Shown here piece after piece: positions 29,468 to 38,497 of a stretch of 64,000 bases of DNA. Location: positions 44,445-108,444 of the forward strand of contig JAZKIV010000036.1 in assembly GCA_040384685.1 (NCBI GenBank). Direction: 5' to 3'. Within the stretch, counting starts at the first letter, position 1. Every line of letters begins with the position of its first letter. Source of the stretch: Pseudomonadota bacterium (GTDB lineage: Bacteria > Pseudomonadota > Gammaproteobacteria > Burkholderiales > Burkholderiaceae_C). Both the position numbers and the translations under genes were made by a program. The notes under the pieces were generated by a model. That model had not been told where the DNA came from and made no database searches. It saw nothing but the letters and a program-made list of their open reading frames with translations.

Positions 29468-29929
29468 TCAGCCGGCCGGGTCCAGCGGCTTGCCGAAATG
29501 CAGGCCGACGATGCGGCAGCCCTGGTTCATCCAGAAGCGCTGCGCCACCGCGTTGGTGACGAAGGTGTCCAGCACGATGCGCTCGCAGCCGCGCTCTCGC
29601 GCGATGCGTTCCAGCGCGTGCCACAGCAGCTGCCCCAGGCCGCGGCCACGCTCATCGTCGCCGACGATGAAGTGGTCGACGTACAGGTACCTGCCGTAGC
29701 AGAAGCGGTTCTGGATCCAGTAGCCGCTCATGCCGAGCATCTGCACTTCAGCCCTACCCTCGCCTTCCTCGAAGGCGCCGATGCATTCCCAGCCCCCGGC
29801 TTCGACGTCGTCCAGCCGCCGCAGAAGCGTGTCCTCGGCAATCGAGGGATAGAGCGCGCGCAGATGGAGCAGGAACGCTTCCTGGTCGCGCGGAAACCGC
29901 AGCGGGCGCAAGACTGCCGCCTGCATCAT
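29468..29929 (-). CDS. GNAT N-acetyltransferase
   Basis: LYVDHFIVGDDERGRGLG acetyl-CoA motif A, NAVAQRFW. GGAGG before 29929; an alternative ATG at 29947 overlaps the eamA-like stop. Confidence 0.88.
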   Translation of the reverse strand: MMQAAVLRPLRFPRDQEAFLLHLRALYPSIAEDTLLRRLDDVEAGGWECIGAFEEGEGRAEVQMLGMSGYWIQNRFCYGRYLYVDHFIVGDDERGRGLGQLLWHALERIARERGCERIVLDTFVTNAVAQRFWMNQGCRIVGLHFGKPLDPAG

Positions 29930-29943
29930 CGAACCACCTCCAC

Positions 29944-30840
29944 TCATGCGGTGCGCGCCCGCGGCACGGGCGCAGGTTTCAGGGCCATCGGCACCACGTG
30001 CACGGCCACGCCGGCCAGCACCACGGCGGCCGACACCAGCAGCTGCACGCTCAGGTTCTCGTCCAGCAGCAGCCAGGCCAGCGCGACGCCGAACACCGGG
30101 ATCAGCAGCGCGATGGGCGAAGTGGCGGCCACGCCGACCGTGCCGATCGCCTTGCCCCACAGCACCTGCGCCACCGCGAACGAGGCGATCACCACATAGG
30201 CCACCGGCAGCCAGCCGGCCAGCGGCGCCTGCACCAGCGCCTGCAGCGCCGGCGGCGCGCCGGGCAGCGCCAGCTCGCGCGCCAGCCAGATGGCCGGCAG
30301 GCAGATCAGGCCGCTGGCGCACTGCAGCCGGATCACGCTCTCGGTGCTGCGCTTGATGGTGGTGTTGGCGAAGGCCCAGCCGGCCGCCGCCAGCAGGCAG
30401 ACCGCGCTGGCCAGCCAGGGCGCCTTGCTGCCGCCGGTGGCCAGCACGCCGGTGAGGCCGGCCAGGCCCAGCACGCTGCCGGCGATGGTGGTGGTGCGCA
30501 CCGATTCGCCCAGGATCAGCCAGCTGAGCGCCAGCGAGATGAACACCTGGAACTGCATCAGCAGCGCCGCCAGCCCGGGCGACAGGCCGAGCTGGATGGC
30601 GACGGTGGACAGCAGGTACTGGCCGATGCCCGAGCACAGCGAATACAGCAGCAAGGTCGTCACCGGCATCTTTCTGGGCCAGCCGACGATGGGAATCAGC
30701 GCGGCGACGAAGGCGAAGCGCAGCGCCGTGAGCAGGTACGGATCGAAATGTTCGAGCGCGAGCCGCACCGCCACGAAGTTGCCGCCCCACAGGACGGCGG
30801 CGGCCACCGCCGCCGCATACGCCACGCCCCTGGACGTCAC
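29944..30840 (-). CDS. EamA/DMT family exporter
   Basis: LWGGNFVAVR, LTALRF, about ten hydrophobic segments, SPIALLIPVFG. Confidence 0.9.
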   Translation of the reverse strand: MTSRGVAYAAAVAAAVLWGGNFVAVRLALEHFDPYLLTALRFAFVAALIPIVGWPRKMPVTTLLLYSLCSGIGQYLLSTVAIQLGLSPGLAALLMQFQVFISLALSWLILGESVRTTTIAGSVLGLAGLTGVLATGGSKAPWLASAVCLLAAAGWAFANTTIKRSTESVIRLQCASGLICLPAIWLARELALPGAPPALQALVQAPLAGWLPVAYVVIASFAVAQVLWGKAIGTVGVAATSPIALLIPVFGVALAWLLLDENLSVQLLVSAAVVLAGVAVHVVPMALKPAPVPRARTA

Positions 30841-31754
30841 GCCGCCGCCTCCAGCGCCGCGGACCTGCCGGTCTCGCGGGCCGACTCGAACACATCGGCC
30901 AGCATGGCGTAGTAGCGGTTGGCCACCTGCAGCCGCAGCTGGACACCGGTGGCCACCTCGGCCGTGAGTTCCGGGCGGGCCTGCAGCATCGGCAGCACCA
31001 CCTGGTTGAGCAGGTCGTCGCCGTGCTTGGCATCGATCTTCACGTGCATCTCGTGATAGTAGATGATGTCCTCGGGCACGCCCAGCCTGCGCATGCCCTG
31101 CACCGCGCGCGCGAAGCGCCGGGGCGCGGTGTGCTCCAGCAAGGTCAGCGCGCCCATCAGCTTCACGCAGTGCTCGCGCCGGACCGACAGCAGCAGCAGC
31201 AGGTTGCCGTTGGCCAGCGCCTCGGCGGTCGGCTGCACGAAGCGGCCGAACCGGGTGCCGTCGATGGCGTCGCGGAAGTACGCGGCCGAGTCGCAGAACA
31301 GGCGCGTGTGCATCTGGGTCTCGTCGCCCATGCCCATCTCGTCCCAGTAGTTGGCGGCCAGCGCCACCTTGGCCGCGCCCTTCAGGCCCATCTGCGCCAT
31401 CGCGATCACGTCGTCGAAGCGGCCGTCCACCTGCTCTTCGTAGAGCACGTAGACCGACAGCTCCTGCAGCGTGGCGTGCTGCGCCAGGTGGTCGAAGAAG
31501 GGTTCGGCCGCGGCCACCTGCTCGCGAAAGCGCGCGCGGTACCAGGGCTCGAAGTCCTCGGCGCGGCGCGGCAGCGCGGCGGTGTCGACGGTGGCCAGCT
31601 CGCGCGCCAGCCAGGCCGATTCGACCGCCTGCGTCGCGTCGCGGTGCGCGGCGAGCGCGGCCGCGTCGAACTCCTGCGGGCCGGCCAGTTCGCGCAGGTA
31701 CTGCGCGTTCAGCAGCAGCTGCGACGGCAGGCTGTACGGGTCATGCGTGTGCAT
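30837..31754 (-). CDS. heme-oxygenase-like dimetal oxidase (HDO; iron-containing redox enzyme family)
   Basis: NYWDEMGMG...MHTRLF, LEH, and HEMHVKIDAKH give the E,H / E / H,D,H ligand pattern. Confidence 0.82.
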   Translation of the reverse strand: MHTHDPYSLPSQLLLNAQYLRELAGPQEFDAAALAAHRDATQAVESAWLARELATVDTAALPRRAEDFEPWYRARFREQVAAAEPFFDHLAQHATLQELSVYVLYEEQVDGRFDDVIAMAQMGLKGAAKVALAANYWDEMGMGDETQMHTRLFCDSAAYFRDAIDGTRFGRFVQPTAEALANGNLLLLLSVRREHCVKLMGALTLLEHTAPRRFARAVQGMRRLGVPEDIIYYHEMHVKIDAKHGDDLLNQVVLPMLQARPELTAEVATGVQLRLQVANRYYAMLADVFESARETGRSAALEAAA

Positions 31755-31755
31755 T

Positions 31756-32346
31756 TCAGAATGCCTTTCGTTCGTGGACGAAGTCCTTCAGGTCCGGCTT
31801 GCTCTTCCAGAACGGCTCCAGCGGATGGTCGCCCAGCGCCTCCACGTATTCGGAGCGCTCGGCCTGCTGCAAGGTGGGCAGGTAGCGCGGGCAGTTCGGG
31901 AAGATGTCCGTCACCGCCACGCTGACCGCGGCGTGTGCGCCCTTCAGCGAGCGCACCAGTTCCGGCTCGGTCACCACTTCGGCACGGCCGTGGATGCGCA
32001 GCTTGCGCTTCTCTCCGGAAAACTCCAGGAACAGCAGCGCCACGCGCGTGGTCGCGCGGATGTTGCCCAGCGTGCGGAACATGCCGTTGCCGTCGTAGTC
32101 GGGAAACACCAGCGTGTGGCCGCCGTGCAGTTGCACGAAGCCCTCCGGGCCGCTCTTGACCGAGCAGTCCAGCGTGCCGTCGGCGGCCGACGAGGCGATG
32201 AAGAAGAACTGAGCCTTGCCGATGATTTCCGCATCGGTCTCGTTGAAGGCGGTGCGGCGGCGCGTCTGCTCGATGCGCTCGGCGATGCGGGTGGTGCCCA
32301 TCTCGGCCTGCAGCGCCTTCTGTTCGGCGTGAAAGAACTCGGACAT
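31756..32346 (-). CDS. pyridoxamine 5'-phosphate oxidase-like FMN-binding protein
   Basis: DCSVKSGPEGFV, FPDYDGNGMFRTLGNI, FPNCPRY. Confidence 0.85.
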   Translation of the reverse strand: MSEFFHAEQKALQAEMGTTRIAERIEQTRRRTAFNETDAEIIGKAQFFFIASSAADGTLDCSVKSGPEGFVQLHGGHTLVFPDYDGNGMFRTLGNIRATTRVALLFLEFSGEKRKLRIHGRAEVVTEPELVRSLKGAHAAVSVAVTDIFPNCPRYLPTLQQAERSEYVEALGDHPLEPFWKSKPDLKDFVHERKAF

Positions 32347-32358
32347 GTCGGCCTCCTG

Positions 32359-33069
32359 TCAGCGGAACTCGATCACCAGCACGTCGCGGTAACCCGGCCT
32401 GGCCGGGTCCGCGGGCTGGATGGCGGTGGTGTCGTGCAGCACGGTGTCGTCGCGAAACACCATGATGTCGCCGCCCGCGTCCAGGCGGCCCTGGAACGCG
32501 GCCTCGTGCGTCAGCAGGTCGAACAGCGTGGTGTCGCCGCCGATGAAGTTGATGTGGTTGGCCATGAACAGGCAGCTGAACTTCACGCCGTCGCGGTGCT
32601 TGCCCTCGGGCACCGGTTTGCCGGCTTCCTCGGACCTCGCCACGATGCGGTTGAAGTAGGTGTTGATGCGCCAGCGCGGCTGGTCTTCCAGCACACTGTA
32701 GGCCGCGCCCAGCAGCTTCAGCACGCGCTGCACCACCTGGTTGTTCACGATGGTGTCGGTCAGCGGCGCGAAGTGGCGGTCCACCCCGCCGTTGAGCGGG
32801 TTGAAGTACTTCGGCTGCGAATAGGGTGCGTGCGGCTGCACTTCCAGCCGGTCGTCGCCATGGGTGTAGACGAAGCGACCGAAGCGGCGCAGCCGGTAGG
32901 AGCCGCCGTCGTTCATGTAGGCGTCGGGCGGCAGGTCCTCGAAGATGGCCTGGAACGCGCGCCAGTCGTCCAGCGCCGTCAGGTCTTCGCCGAGAACCTG
33001 CGCGGTGGTGCCGATCACGAAGCGCTCTTCGGCAAGGGTGTCGAGTCCCGAGGTGGTCACGTCATGCAT
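32359..33069 (-). CDS. 2-oxoglutarate/Fe(II) dioxygenase (PF10014/BsmA/IDO-like)
   Basis: YRLRRF, PEGKHRDG (HxD), distal LHD, C-terminal RDVL. Confidence 0.8.
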   Translation of the reverse strand: MHDVTTSGLDTLAEERFVIGTTAQVLGEDLTALDDWRAFQAIFEDLPPDAYMNDGGSYRLRRFGRFVYTHGDDRLEVQPHAPYSQPKYFNPLNGGVDRHFAPLTDTIVNNQVVQRVLKLLGAAYSVLEDQPRWRINTYFNRIVARSEEAGKPVPEGKHRDGVKFSCLFMANHINFIGGDTTLFDLLTHEAAFQGRLDAGGDIMVFRDDTVLHDTTAIQPADPARPGYRDVLVIEFR

Positions 33070-33943
33070 AGCTGGCCTTCCTGCTGTTGTAGATGTCCTG
33101 GATGAGGTCGAAATAGGAACTGTTCTGGAACACGATGCGCGACGCGATGCGTTCGTGGAACGCGCGGAACGCTTCCGGGCGCAGCGCGGGAGCGAGGTGG
33201 TGCTCCACGTGGAAGTTGTTGCCGTTGGTGAACCAGGTGGCCAGCCAGCCGGCGCGCACGGTGCGCGTGTTCTCGAACACCGAAGGCGACTTGGCGCAGC
33301 CCCAGTGCTCGGGCAGTTCCAGCAGCGTGTGCATGCAGGCGGCCAGCGGGAAGGCCAGCAGCAGCACCGCGTCGAACGGGCGGAACACGGCGGCCAGCGC
33401 CATCGCCGCCAGCACGATCGCGCCGAAGGCGGCGTAGTCGCGGCGGATGCGGCGCTCGTTGTTCCTGTTGTAGACGCGCCCGATGGGCGCGCCGGTCCAT
33501 GCCGCCCACACCAGCTGCGCCACGCGCACCCAGTGCGGCAGCATCAGCAGGTTGGCCGCCAGGCGCCACGGCCGTTCGTTGTCTTCCTTGGAGAACTGGA
33601 AGAACTCCGAGTCGTCGTCGGTGCCCACGTGCTGGTGGTGGTGCAGATGGCGGTCCTGGTAGTGGTGGAAGGAGATCAGCAGCGGCAGGCCGAGCACGAA
33701 GCCCAGCGCGCGGTCCAGCCCGCGGCTGCCGGTGCCGGTGCTGTGCAGCGCCTGGTGCTCCAGCTCGATGCCGTGCGCGAAGGCCATGGCCACCAGCAGC
33801 ACGCCTGCCGCCTTCATCCACCAGAATTGCATGCCCGCCAGAGCGGTACCGGCGGCTATCATCAGCGCCCACACAGCGCATTTCGCAAGAAACACCATCG
33901 GCCGATTAGCGACCAGGTCTTTGTAGTCGATTCCCTGATTCAT
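33062..33943 (-). CDS. membrane fatty-acid-desaturase family enzyme
   Basis: Three His boxes HQALH, HLHHH and HVEHH with hydrophobic spans. Start uncertain (33943 or 33991). Confidence 0.85.
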   Translation of the reverse strand: MNQGIDYKDLVANRPMVFLAKCAVWALMIAAGTALAGMQFWWMKAAGVLLVAMAFAHGIELEHQALHSTGTGSRGLDRALGFVLGLPLLISFHHYQDRHLHHHQHVGTDDDSEFFQFSKEDNERPWRLAANLLMLPHWVRVAQLVWAAWTGAPIGRVYNRNNERRIRRDYAAFGAIVLAAMALAAVFRPFDAVLLLAFPLAACMHTLLELPEHWGCAKSPSVFENTRTVRAGWLATWFTNGNNFHVEHHLAPALRPEAFRAFHERIASRIVFQNSSYFDLIQDIYNSRKASYA

Positions 33944-34365
33944 ATTTTTTGAGACGAGTGCATGCCTCGCGCCGTTTTGGCTGCGATTCATGGTCAAGAG
34001 AGAGCCTCGCGTGCGCCGGAGGGCATGGAATGCCGGCATCGCAAAGGGAATGTGATGAGAGAGAGTGCGGTTGTTCTTCTTGTGTGTGCCTGTCGTCCTT
34101 CCCGAGGTGCCAATAGATGTCCGCCCGCGAATGCGGGCGGAGCGCGACTGCGCAATATGTCTACTGCTTACCCAGGGCGACGTGGGCCTTGATGGCCCGC
34201 CGCGGCGGTGCGGGGCCCGCACCGATCCTCCCTGGCGCACCTGGCCCGTGAATGGAGCCGGTGCTTTTTTTGCGCAGGGCGGACCTTAGCATTCATCTTT
34301 ACGGCCAGCAAGAGTACCTGTGTATTGATGCTGCCAATTCCGCGCATCATCTTGCTGACTTATAT

Positions 34366-36714: not shown

Positions 36715-37635
36715 CTACGGCGCCGGCGCGCTCCAGTTCGGTGCGCCGAATGTGGACTGCAGGAAACGGCTGAGCGCCTCGGCGGCGACGCCGGGCTGGC
36801 GCCGCGTGCTCCACAGCAGCGTGATGTCCACCGGCGCCAGCGCGTCCAGCGGCCGCGTTTCCACCCGCGCGCCCTCGCGCGCGAACGGCCGGTAGGCGAC
36901 GTCGCTCAGCACCGTGACGCCCATCCCCTGGGCCACCAGGCTGCGTACCGCCTCGATGGACTGGACCCGGAAGCGGATGTCCGGCACCAGGCGGCGCCGC
37001 GCGAAGATCTCGCGCGTGCTGTCGCCCATCTCGTCCACGTCGTACAGGATGTAGGGCTGCCTGGCGATGTCGGCCAGCGTGACCTGGCGCTTGGCCAGCA
37101 GCGGATGGCCGGCACCCAGCCACAGCTGGCGGCGCGAACGGGTCAGCACCCGCGCCTGCACGCCGGCAGGCAGCTTGGGGTTGAAGCGCAGCACCGCCAG
37201 GTCGGCCCGGCCGCCGGCCACCGCCGCTTCCGCCTGCACGCGCGTGGCTTCCTCCACGGCCAGCCGGACCAATGGGTAGGCGGCGGCGAAACGCGCCAGG
37301 GCCGGCACCAGGTAGTAGCCCAGGGTCGACGACGAAGCCAGCAGCCTGGCCGAGCCTTGCAGTTCCGCGGTCGCGCCGCCGGCTTCCACGCCCGCCGCGG
37401 CCACGGCGGAGGCGATGTGGCGGGCGCGCTCCAGGAACCGCTGGCCCTGCAAGGTCAAGGCGACGCCGCTCGCATGCCGGCGCTCGAACAGCCGGCAGCC
37501 CAGGGCCGCTTCCAGTTCGCGGATGGCCGCCGTCATGGCCGATTGCGTCACGTGCACCCTGGCCGCGGCGCTGGTGAACTGCCCGGCTTCCGCCGCCGCA
37601 AGGAAGTACTCGACCTGCTTCAGCGTGAACTGCAT
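36715..37635 (-). CDS. LysR-family regulator
   Basis: FTSAAARVHVTQSAMTAAIRELE...LFER helix-turn-helix. Confidence 0.92.
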   Translation of the reverse strand: MQFTLKQVEYFLAAAEAGQFTSAAARVHVTQSAMTAAIRELEAALGCRLFERRHASGVALTLQGQRFLERARHIASAVAAAGVEAGGATAELQGSARLLASSSTLGYYLVPALARFAAAYPLVRLAVEEATRVQAEAAVAGGRADLAVLRFNPKLPAGVQARVLTRSRRQLWLGAGHPLLAKRQVTLADIARQPYILYDVDEMGDSTREIFARRRLVPDIRFRVQSIEAVRSLVAQGMGVTVLSDVAYRPFAREGARVETRPLDALAPVDITLLWSTRRQPGVAAEALSRFLQSTFGAPNWSAPAP

Positions 37636-37735
37636 AAACCGGATCGATGCATGGCGCGAAGATTACTCGCTTTCGCGCGCAACCCGCCGAATCCACAATG
37701 GCGCATCAGCATCTGTAAAACTCATGCCAGCTTCC

Positions 37736-38497
37736 ATGAAAACCATCGGTATCGTCGCCCACAGCGCGGAAGGCGCCGGGCTGTGCTTCCTCGCTGCCTG
37801 CCGCGCCGGCGGTGAATTGCTGGGCGAGCACCTGCACCCGCCCATCGCCATGAGCGCCATCGCCATGGGCCTGAGCATGCCGGGCTGGTGGGCCAATGAC
37901 CTGGAACAGGTCAAGCCGCACCTGCTGCGCGGCATCGAGATGGTGGCGCGCTCCGGCGCCGACTTCTTCGTCTGCCCCGACAACACGGCGCACCTTGCGC
38001 TGGAGCGGATGCAGCTGCCGCTGCCGGGCCTGCACATCGCCGGCGTGGTCGGCACGGAGACCGTGCGCCGCGGCTTCTCGCGCGTGGGGCTGCTGGGAAC
38101 GCGCTGGACCATGTCGGGCACGGTCTATCCGGATGCGCTGCGGCGCCATGGCGTCGAGCTGCTGGTGCCCGATGCGCAGGAGCAGGAAGAATTGAACGAA
38201 CTGATCTTCCGCGAGCTGTGCAACGGCCGCTTCGCGCCCGCCACCACCGCAAGCTTCCTGCGCGCCATCGAGCGCCTGAAGGTGCGCGGCGCGCAGGCCG
38301 TGATCCTCGGCTGCACCGAGATCCCGATCATCGTGGACGACCGCAATGCGGCGCTGCCGACGCTCGACTCGACGCGGCTGCTGGCGCGCTACGCGGTCGA
38401 GCTGGCGCTGCGCGACAGGCCTCTGCCCGCGCAGCAGGACGGCTGGCTCGCGCCGCCGGTGCTCACGGCGCCGGCCGGCTCGCCTTCAGGGATGTGA
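37736..38497 (+). CDS. aspartate/glutamate racemase family protein
   Basis: CPDNTAH, GLLGTRWTM, ILGCTEI. Confidence 0.85.
   Translation: MKTIGIVAHSAEGAGLCFLAACRAGGELLGEHLHPPIAMSAIAMGLSMPGWWANDLEQVKPHLLRGIEMVARSGADFFVCPDNTAHLALERMQLPLPGLHIAGVVGTETVRRGFSRVGLLGTRWTMSGTVYPDALRRHGVELLVPDAQEQEELNELIFRELCNGRFAPATTASFLRAIERLKVRGAQAVILGCTEIPIIVDDRNAALPTLDSTRLLARYAVELALRDRPLPAQQDGWLAPPVLTAPAGSPSGM

Follow-up and report, generated by a model that had tools for sequence, protein, structure and literature searches.

A compact operon of six genes lies within the 64,000-nucleotide stretch of Burkholderiaceae_C DNA that was analysed here (referred to below as the window; contig JAZKIV010000036.1 of assembly GCA_040384685.1, positions 44,445 to 108,444 of the forward strand). 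All six genes are carried on the minus strand and encode, in order, a desaturase-like membrane enzyme, a PF10014 dioxygenase dependent on iron and 2-oxoglutarate (2OG), a small split-barrel protein of the PNPOx type, a heme-oxygenase-like diiron oxygenase (HDO), an EamA-family exporter and a GNAT acetyltransferase (Table 1). The third and fourth of these genes are the subject of this report, since an original prediction, made from the letters of this DNA, had proposed that the PNPOx-like flavoprotein is a dedicated reductase partner of the HDO. The association between the two proteins proves to be real and to extend beyond this operon, and the proteins are functionally tied; the more specific idea, that the HDO receives its electrons from PNPOx as a dedicated donor, is put forward as a tentative reading, held with rather less than even confidence.

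Table 1. Features of the operon, with positions numbered from the first letter of the window
Feature	Position	Strand	Description
Desaturase-like membrane diiron enzyme	33062..33943	-	approximately 293 aa; PF00487, E 3e-33; operon gene 1
Fe/2OG dioxygenase	32359..33069	-	PF10014 (2OG-Fe_Oxy_2), E 6e-55; PDB relatives 3pl0, 9dqp, 9dq0, 8jms
PNPOx-like split-barrel protein	31756..32346	-	196 aa; PF01243, 50 bits; predicted flavoprotein, invariant NCPRY motif
Single spacer base (A)	31755	-	between PNPOx stop and HDO start, TGA-A-ATG; read from sequence
HrmI-like HDO	30837..31754	-	305 aa; PF14518, 124.5 bits; probable amino-acid N-oxygenase
EamA-family exporter	29944..30840	-	PF00892, E 2e-25; weak match to O-acetylserine/cysteine exporter model
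GNAT acetyltransferase	about 29468..29947	-	last gene of the operon; weak NCBIfam matches to GNAT resistance acetyltransferases

The adjacency from which the original prediction set out is exact: the TGA stop codon of the PNPOx gene occupies positions 31758-31756 and the ATG of the HDO gene positions 31754-31752, with AAGG placed 9 nucleotides 5' of the HDO start and AGGAGG placed 6 nucleotides 5' of the PNPOx start. That 1-nucleotide gap by itself says little, because all of the junctions in the operon are comparably tight. The desaturase-like and 2OG genes overlap by 8 nucleotides, the 2OG and PNPOx genes are separated by a 12-nucleotide gap that holds the AGGAGG, the HDO and EamA genes overlap by 4 nucleotides (GTGA), and the GNAT gene follows directly 3' of the EamA gene. 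A scan for promoters and terminators returned no signal above chance. For the first gene, a longer GTG reading frame extends to position 34240; the ATG at 33943 is the probable start, because homologues align only from approximately residue 110 of that longer frame and because the Moritella orthologue is 291 residues in length.

The HDO matches PF14518 above the curated cut-off of 28.9 bits, across profile positions 10-175 of 177. Its best match among solved structures is HrmI (PDB 9n1a), with a phmmer E value of 6e-39 over residues 35-285 and an E value of 1e-50 when a 15-sequence profile is used, and the solved HDOs that follow are matched far more weakly (1e-9 for the RohS type and 1e-5 for SznF). 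Residues E139, H149, E207, H237, D241 and H244, spaced as E-x9-H ... E ... H-x3-D-x2-H, are invariant among 15 homologues and align with the corresponding residues of HrmI, making up a set of three histidines and three carboxylates appropriate to a diiron site; the assignment of individual ligands to one or the other iron is a prediction. The HDO is therefore probably an amino-acid N-oxygenase, a conclusion that is drawn from its homology to HrmI and not from the presence of the flavoprotein. The original prediction had reasoned from the flavoprotein to N-oxygenation; support for that activity comes instead from the relationship to HrmI and the conserved ligands.

Diiron N-oxygenases consume two electrons per cycle, either in the conversion of an amine to a hydroxylamine or, by an AurF-type stoichiometry, in the conversion of an amine to a nitro group. 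It had been claimed that N-oxygenation by HDOs depends on electrons from outside, and this agrees with the behavior of HrmI and BelK, both of which require NADH and phenazine methosulfate (PMS) in vitro (PMC11611017; PMC13108848). The product of HrmI is N6-hydroxylysine, followed by the nitro product (PMC13108848). In the pathways to hormaomycin and belactosin, HrmI and BelK operate together with HrmJ and BelL to convert L-lysine to 6-nitronorleucine and then to nitrocyclopropylalanine (PMC11611017). The PF10014 family, to which the adjoining 2OG dioxygenase belongs, is that of HrmJ and BelL (PMC11611017), and likewise includes TqaL. The further claim that the physiological reductants of HDOs are mostly unidentified also agrees with the literature: in vitro studies employ PMS/NADH or ascorbate, and a single dedicated partner, MboB, has been described (PMC13185094).

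The PNPOx-like protein has PF01243 as its sole Pfam match (cut-off 28.1 bits). Its best NCBIfam match is TIGR04025 (the MSMEG_1061/DR2398 family of FMN-dependent PPOX-type proteins), with which it shares length and domain layout; the score of 82.8 bits lies far below the cut-off of 170 bits, and standalone relatives score alike (81-95 bits), so that the protein belongs to a sister family with invariant motifs of its own. NCBIfam holds no dedicated model for this sister family, and no literature was found on it or on the TIGR04025 family. A search against solved structures found no sequence-level relative, and a search of the ESM Atlas returned only generic PNPOx clusters. An AlphaFold2 model (pLDDT 90.5) displays a single domain with a split-barrel core at approximately residues 30-157, for which the fold matches include HupZ (Z 15.5), YviC with bound flavin mononucleotide (FMN; Z 14.5) and the Desulfovibrio vulgaris FMN-binding protein (Z 13.2); the small FMN-binding proteins thus share its split-barrel core at Z 13-15. 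The structural neighbors carry FMN, FAD, F420 or heme. Flavin binding is predicted from these models, and the conserved residues K64 and R/K91 could bind phosphate. With neither an NAD(P)H-binding or iron-sulfur domain nor a match to the flavin-reductase family PF01613, the protein does not qualify as an NAD(P)H-dependent reductase of the MboB or flavin-reductase type.

To examine the linkage between the two genes, a single genome from each species was scanned for relatives of the HDO, which produced 80 loci; these were searched with the operon proteins, and an HDO tree was built. Linkage was scored where a PNPOx of the same family lay within 8 kb of the HDO. The window HDO falls in a separate clade of 30 rows (support 98), holding 26 of the scanned species genomes, and PNPOx is linked to the HDO in nine of these 26, in Streptomyces, Kitasatospora, Actinoplanes and Moritella. 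The relative order of the two genes varies: the PNPOx gene may precede the HDO gene on the same strand, lie downstream of it, or be divergent from it. The linkage is patchy, corresponding to at least six gains or losses on the HDO tree. Two loci (L015 and L019) retain the HDO and PNPOx pair without the desaturase and 2OG genes, in place of which they carry genes for a cyclase and for a PhyH enzyme that resembles ectoine hydroxylase.

In three lineages, which are at most 43% identical to one another, the two proteins are fused, always with PNPOx at the N-terminus: P0042 (511 aa); P0102 grouped with P0244, which comes from Moritella sp. PE36; and P0122 (646 aa). The Moritella fusion is a single uninterrupted reading frame of 496 residues that lies directly after a desaturase gene, and in an AlphaFold2 model of P0042 (pLDDT 90.7) both domains are well folded and are joined by a low-confidence linker. 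Pairwise identities among the PNPOx parts correlate with those among the HDO parts (r = 0.89), and from this correlation it follows that the two have been co-inherited. The link between them exceeds what would be expected by chance because the pair recurs elsewhere and is fused, and not because of the spacing of the genes in the window.

The operon is also present in one of 18 species genomes of the same genus (G404, at G404:C414:10524-14438, locus L186), where the 1-nucleotide gap is identical, and was found in none of 12 more distant relatives that were searched; it is therefore an accessory trait, and operons of this type occur sporadically in Proteobacteria and Actinobacteria. Between G404 and the window, no other gene of the operon is as well conserved as that of PNPOx (98.5% identical), with the HDO at 90%. 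Within the genome of the window itself, eight PF14518 genes score above the cut-off, which is an unusually large set, and PNPOx accompanies only the HDO in the window.

The family to which PNPOx belongs, whose members are approximately 195 residues in length, is highly conserved and is defined by the invariant motifs CSxK, YDGNG, NCPRY and WK and by two invariant cysteines. A search of 1.8 billion representative proteins gave 3829 matches at E<1e-3 and 27 at E<1e-30, and a metagenome scan recovered 588 relatives, which are abundant in soil metagenomes; the best 80 of these 588 (L081-L160) are 40-49% identical to the protein in the window. In a tree of the family, the standalone proteins form one tight clade (support 98), and 14 HDO-linked proteins lie outside it on long branches, an arrangement that is compatible with a single recruitment to HDOs. 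The HDO-linked proteins retain all of the invariant residues of the wider family, as would be expected if a generic cofactor chemistry had been recruited. No recurrent neighbor of the standalone clade was found, and the open reading frames there that were put through Pfam proved to be spurious alternative frames.

The reading that is favored here, although it remains short of probable, is that a split-barrel flavoprotein of the PF01243 type docks onto an HrmI-like N-oxygenase and serves as its dedicated source of electrons. PNPOx would be the flavin-binding partner of the HDO and would deliver two electrons to the diferric enzyme in each cycle of N-oxygenation, thereby re-reducing the diiron site; it would itself be reduced by a reductase of the host, and may also serve the desaturase-like diiron enzyme of the same operon, which makes this a somewhat broader version of the original prediction. 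The HDO would act on a free amino acid, with lysine or some other aspartate-pathway product as its probable substrate. The operon encodes two diiron enzymes that depend on a reductant, and PNPOx is the only candidate electron carrier that it encodes. Counted in favor of the donor role are the need of HrmI and BelK for a reductant, the recurrence of the pair in varied gene orders and its persistence in L015 and L019, the fusions, the retention of the invariant residues of the family by HDO-linked members, the correlated identities of the two parts, the conservation of PNPOx in G404, and the precedent of MboA and MboB. That pair, from the mangotoxin system and described in 2026, is possibly the first dedicated pairing of an HDO with a redox partner, and the only one that has been described (PMC13185094). 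As in that case, an HDO and a protein with a proposed redox role are encoded in one operon; the two systems differ in that MboB is a reductase containing NAD(P)H-binding, flavin and Fe2S2 elements and MboA is a peptide acetylenase, whereas the protein described here is a 196-residue split barrel with neither an iron-sulfur nor an NAD(P)H domain, its partner is an HrmI-like HDO, and both are known from sequence alone.

Several observations weigh against a dedicated donor. PNPOx is absent from 17 of the 26 loci in the clade of the window HDO, and from 47 of the 48 HDOs of the other clade, which are typically paired only with a PF10014 gene and which probably include HrmI and BelK; the sole bearer there is the fusion P0122, on a long branch. 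It is therefore dispensable for HDO activity in general, and no replacement redox gene was found in the examined HDO loci that lack it. The PNPOx family, for its part, mostly stands alone: an HDO was nearby in only two of the best 80 metagenome loci, both closely related to the window or to Moritella, and among 400 sampled Pseudomonadota genomes, 12 carried a PNPOx relative, with no HDO inside 1.5 kb in any of those 12. Fusions of other kinds also occur in the family, to domains of the GNAT, TetR, PF01553 acyltransferase, AHSA1/SRPBCC and ureidoglycolate-lyase-like types (P0246, a GNAT-PNPOx fusion; P0248; P0250; P0252-P0254; P0107). These would be as appropriate to an enzyme or a ligand-binding module as to an electron carrier, and those with GNAT, TetR, acyltransferase and SRPBCC domains point to small-molecule chemistry. 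The many invariant polar residues of the family, two cysteines among them, resemble a catalytic site. Pfam and NCBIfam searches revealed no NAD(P)H-binding, iron-sulfur or second cofactor domain, and PNPOx would therefore itself need a reductase. As a stand-in for the modelling of a complex that had been proposed as a check, the model of the natural fusion P0042 (pTM 0.66) gave no confident interface between its domains. Finally, fusion and co-inheritance would suit two consecutive enzymes of a pathway equally well. The original prediction is thus sustained as to partnership, by the nine linked genomes and the three lineages of fusions, and finds no support as to a reductase role, given the missing NAD(P)H-binding domain, the largely unlinked family and the fact that most HrmI-like HDOs do without it; the co-occurrence statistics, which had also been proposed as a check, show the pair recurring in part of the clade of the window HDO, in varied gene orders, and missing from the remainder of that clade and from nearly all of the other clade.

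A serious competing explanation, which we regard as quite possible without thinking it the likeliest, is that PNPOx is a pathway enzyme acting on a substrate of its own, most plausibly the N-hydroxy, nitroso or nitro amino acid that the HDO produces. It would oxidise, reduce, dehydrate or cyclise that N-oxygenated amino acid, and the fusions would correspond to the channelling of a labile intermediate. The fact that HrmI releases N6-hydroxylysine as an intermediate fits such a role, as do the invariant polar residues and the fusions to GNAT, TetR, SRPBCC and acyltransferase domains described above, and the superfamily also holds nitro-reducing proteins (of the NimA and Ddn types) as well as oxidases (PdxH and PhzG). 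The presence of PNPOx further tracks the content of the clusters: a YdjA-like protein of the NAD(P)H nitroreductase family is encoded nearby in three Streptomyces clusters (L013, L020 and L021), and the cyclase and PhyH enzyme accompany it in L015 and L019. Activity on aliphatic N-oxygenated amino acids is not known for any PF01243 enzyme, and the HDO-linked proteins share their invariant residues with a standalone clade that has no HDO to feed it, both of which count against this explanation. Closest in concept are the heme enzymes PipS, KtzT and NohD of PF04299, which have the same superfold and act on N5-hydroxy-ornithine, the product of an amino-acid N-hydroxylase (PMC12576811). The resemblance of PNPOx to them is at the level of fold only (KtzT at Z 9.4, as compared to 15.5 for the top matches, and NohD at Foldseek rank 47); they belong to a different Pfam family, PNPOx has no PF04299 match, no invariant histidine that might serve as a heme ligand is found among 21 aligned family members, and neither the heme-ligand histidine nor the Thr/Lys pair of those enzymes has a conserved counterpart in PNPOx.

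Desaturases, AlkB and enzymes of the GntB type need an external supply of two electrons. PNPOx might for that reason serve mainly the desaturase-like enzyme, its place beside the HDO being secondary; among loci of the clade of the window HDO, PNPOx occurs in 8 of the 15 that have a desaturase gene and in 2 of the 12 that have none, and the Moritella order is desaturase-PNPOx-HDO. This explanation is nevertheless improbable: the fusions are all to the HDO and none to a desaturase, L015 and L019 keep the HDO and PNPOx without a desaturase gene, and seven loci with both desaturase and HDO lack PNPOx. Split-barrel proteins of the NimA type confer resistance to nitro compounds, and the GNAT and EamA exporter genes of the operon, together with the GNAT-PNPOx fusion in the family, would accord with a self-protective flavoprotein that works with them on a toxic product or by-product instead of in biosynthesis, which is likewise unlikely, since fusion to a biosynthetic HDO is hard to account for in a resistance protein and since close Pseudomonas loci keep GNAT without PNPOx.

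When considered as a pathway, the HDO/2OG core of the operon resembles the HrmI/HrmJ system and sits in a sister clade with extra genes. It has in common with that system the homologous HDO with matching metal ligands, the adjoining PF10014 Fe/2OG gene, a free amino acid as (predicted) substrate, and, in related clusters, genes for amino-acid supply or of the racemase/epimerase type. It differs in that the window HDO lies in a separate clade (support 98) from the 48 HDOs usually paired with PF10014 alone, on a tree from which HrmI itself is absent; in that its clusters encode, in addition, a desaturase-like membrane enzyme and, in approximately one third of the genomes, PNPOx; and in that these clusters occur by themselves, accompanied by genes for an exporter and a GNAT protein. 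The operon is a putative pathway to a modified free amino acid, combining desaturase-like, HrmJ-family, PNPOx, HrmI-like HDO, exporter and GNAT components. A literature search found no paper that deals with the pairing of a PNPOx with an HDO, fused or unfused, or with this operon.

A recurrent and naturally fused small flavoprotein represents a concrete candidate for an HDO reductant. If the donor role were correct, PNPOx would join MboB as a second kind of redox partner for HDOs, and would be the first to consist of flavin only; natural, self-sufficient fusions of PNPOx with an HDO would then exist in Moritella sp. PE36 and in two metagenomic lineages. A self-sufficient enzyme that forms nitro or hydroxylamine groups would be useful in biocatalysis. 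The fusions offer test cases for the reduction of an HDO, or else for the handing on of reactive N-hydroxy intermediates.

Additional features were noted around the operon and in clusters related to it. The top NCBIfam match of the desaturase-like protein is a weak one (39 bits) to GntB, the membrane L-arginine gamma-hydroxylase of guanitoxin biosynthesis, which fits an enzyme that would work on a free amino acid and not on a lipid. The GNAT protein is 43% identical to the GNAT whose gene comes after that of the 2OG enzyme at two Pseudomonas loci (L001 and L027), and the Moritella locus has a GNAT as well. A racemase of the Asp/Glu type is encoded at 37415-38497 on the plus strand, 3.5 kb from the operon on its upstream side and beside a LysR gene; further members of its racemase family (27-33% identical) are found within desaturase/HDO clusters of Paraburkholderia and Streptomyces (L003:8777-9664 and L011:5802-6764), and the racemase in the window may be part of the pathway of the operon. 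Genes for aspartokinase, an aspartate-semialdehyde-dehydrogenase-like protein and a ThiF-family protein are present in related desaturase/HDO clusters (L025:4621-5952, L027:10461-11405, L027:9538-10392 and L022:3804-4742) and hint that the substrate comes from the aspartate/lysine pathway and that an adenylation step is involved. Two of the loci that bear PNPOx (L013 and L019) adjoin large putative reading frames resembling nonribosomal peptide synthetases.

HDOs that are 43-45% identical to that of the window also occur in clusters of differing content (L002:3810-11644 and L009, from Burkholderia lata and Trinickia, and L004, from Caballeronia). The Burkholderia and Trinickia clusters encode a second HDO-like protein, two ATP-grasp ligases, a major facilitator superfamily (MFS) transporter and a decarboxylase dependent on pyridoxal phosphate, while a carbamoyltransferase is present in that of Caballeronia, and this looks like a small-peptide pathway in the style of mangotoxin. 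A role of the gramibactin GrbE type was considered for the Burkholderia and Trinickia homologues, and was rejected in view of that gene content. The FVG (gvg) cluster was considered in view of the homologues in Pseudomonas and Pantoea, and was likewise rejected, since it has a core of a carbamoyltransferase and GvgA/C and its gene set is a different one. Further PF14518 genes of the genome of the window include C35:72010-72543, C13:260853-261377, C23:65105-65623 and C10:21123-21644; those on C13 and C35 are 30-32% identical to the HDO described here, and the match on C35 lies within an open frame of 512 residues that may encode an extra domain.

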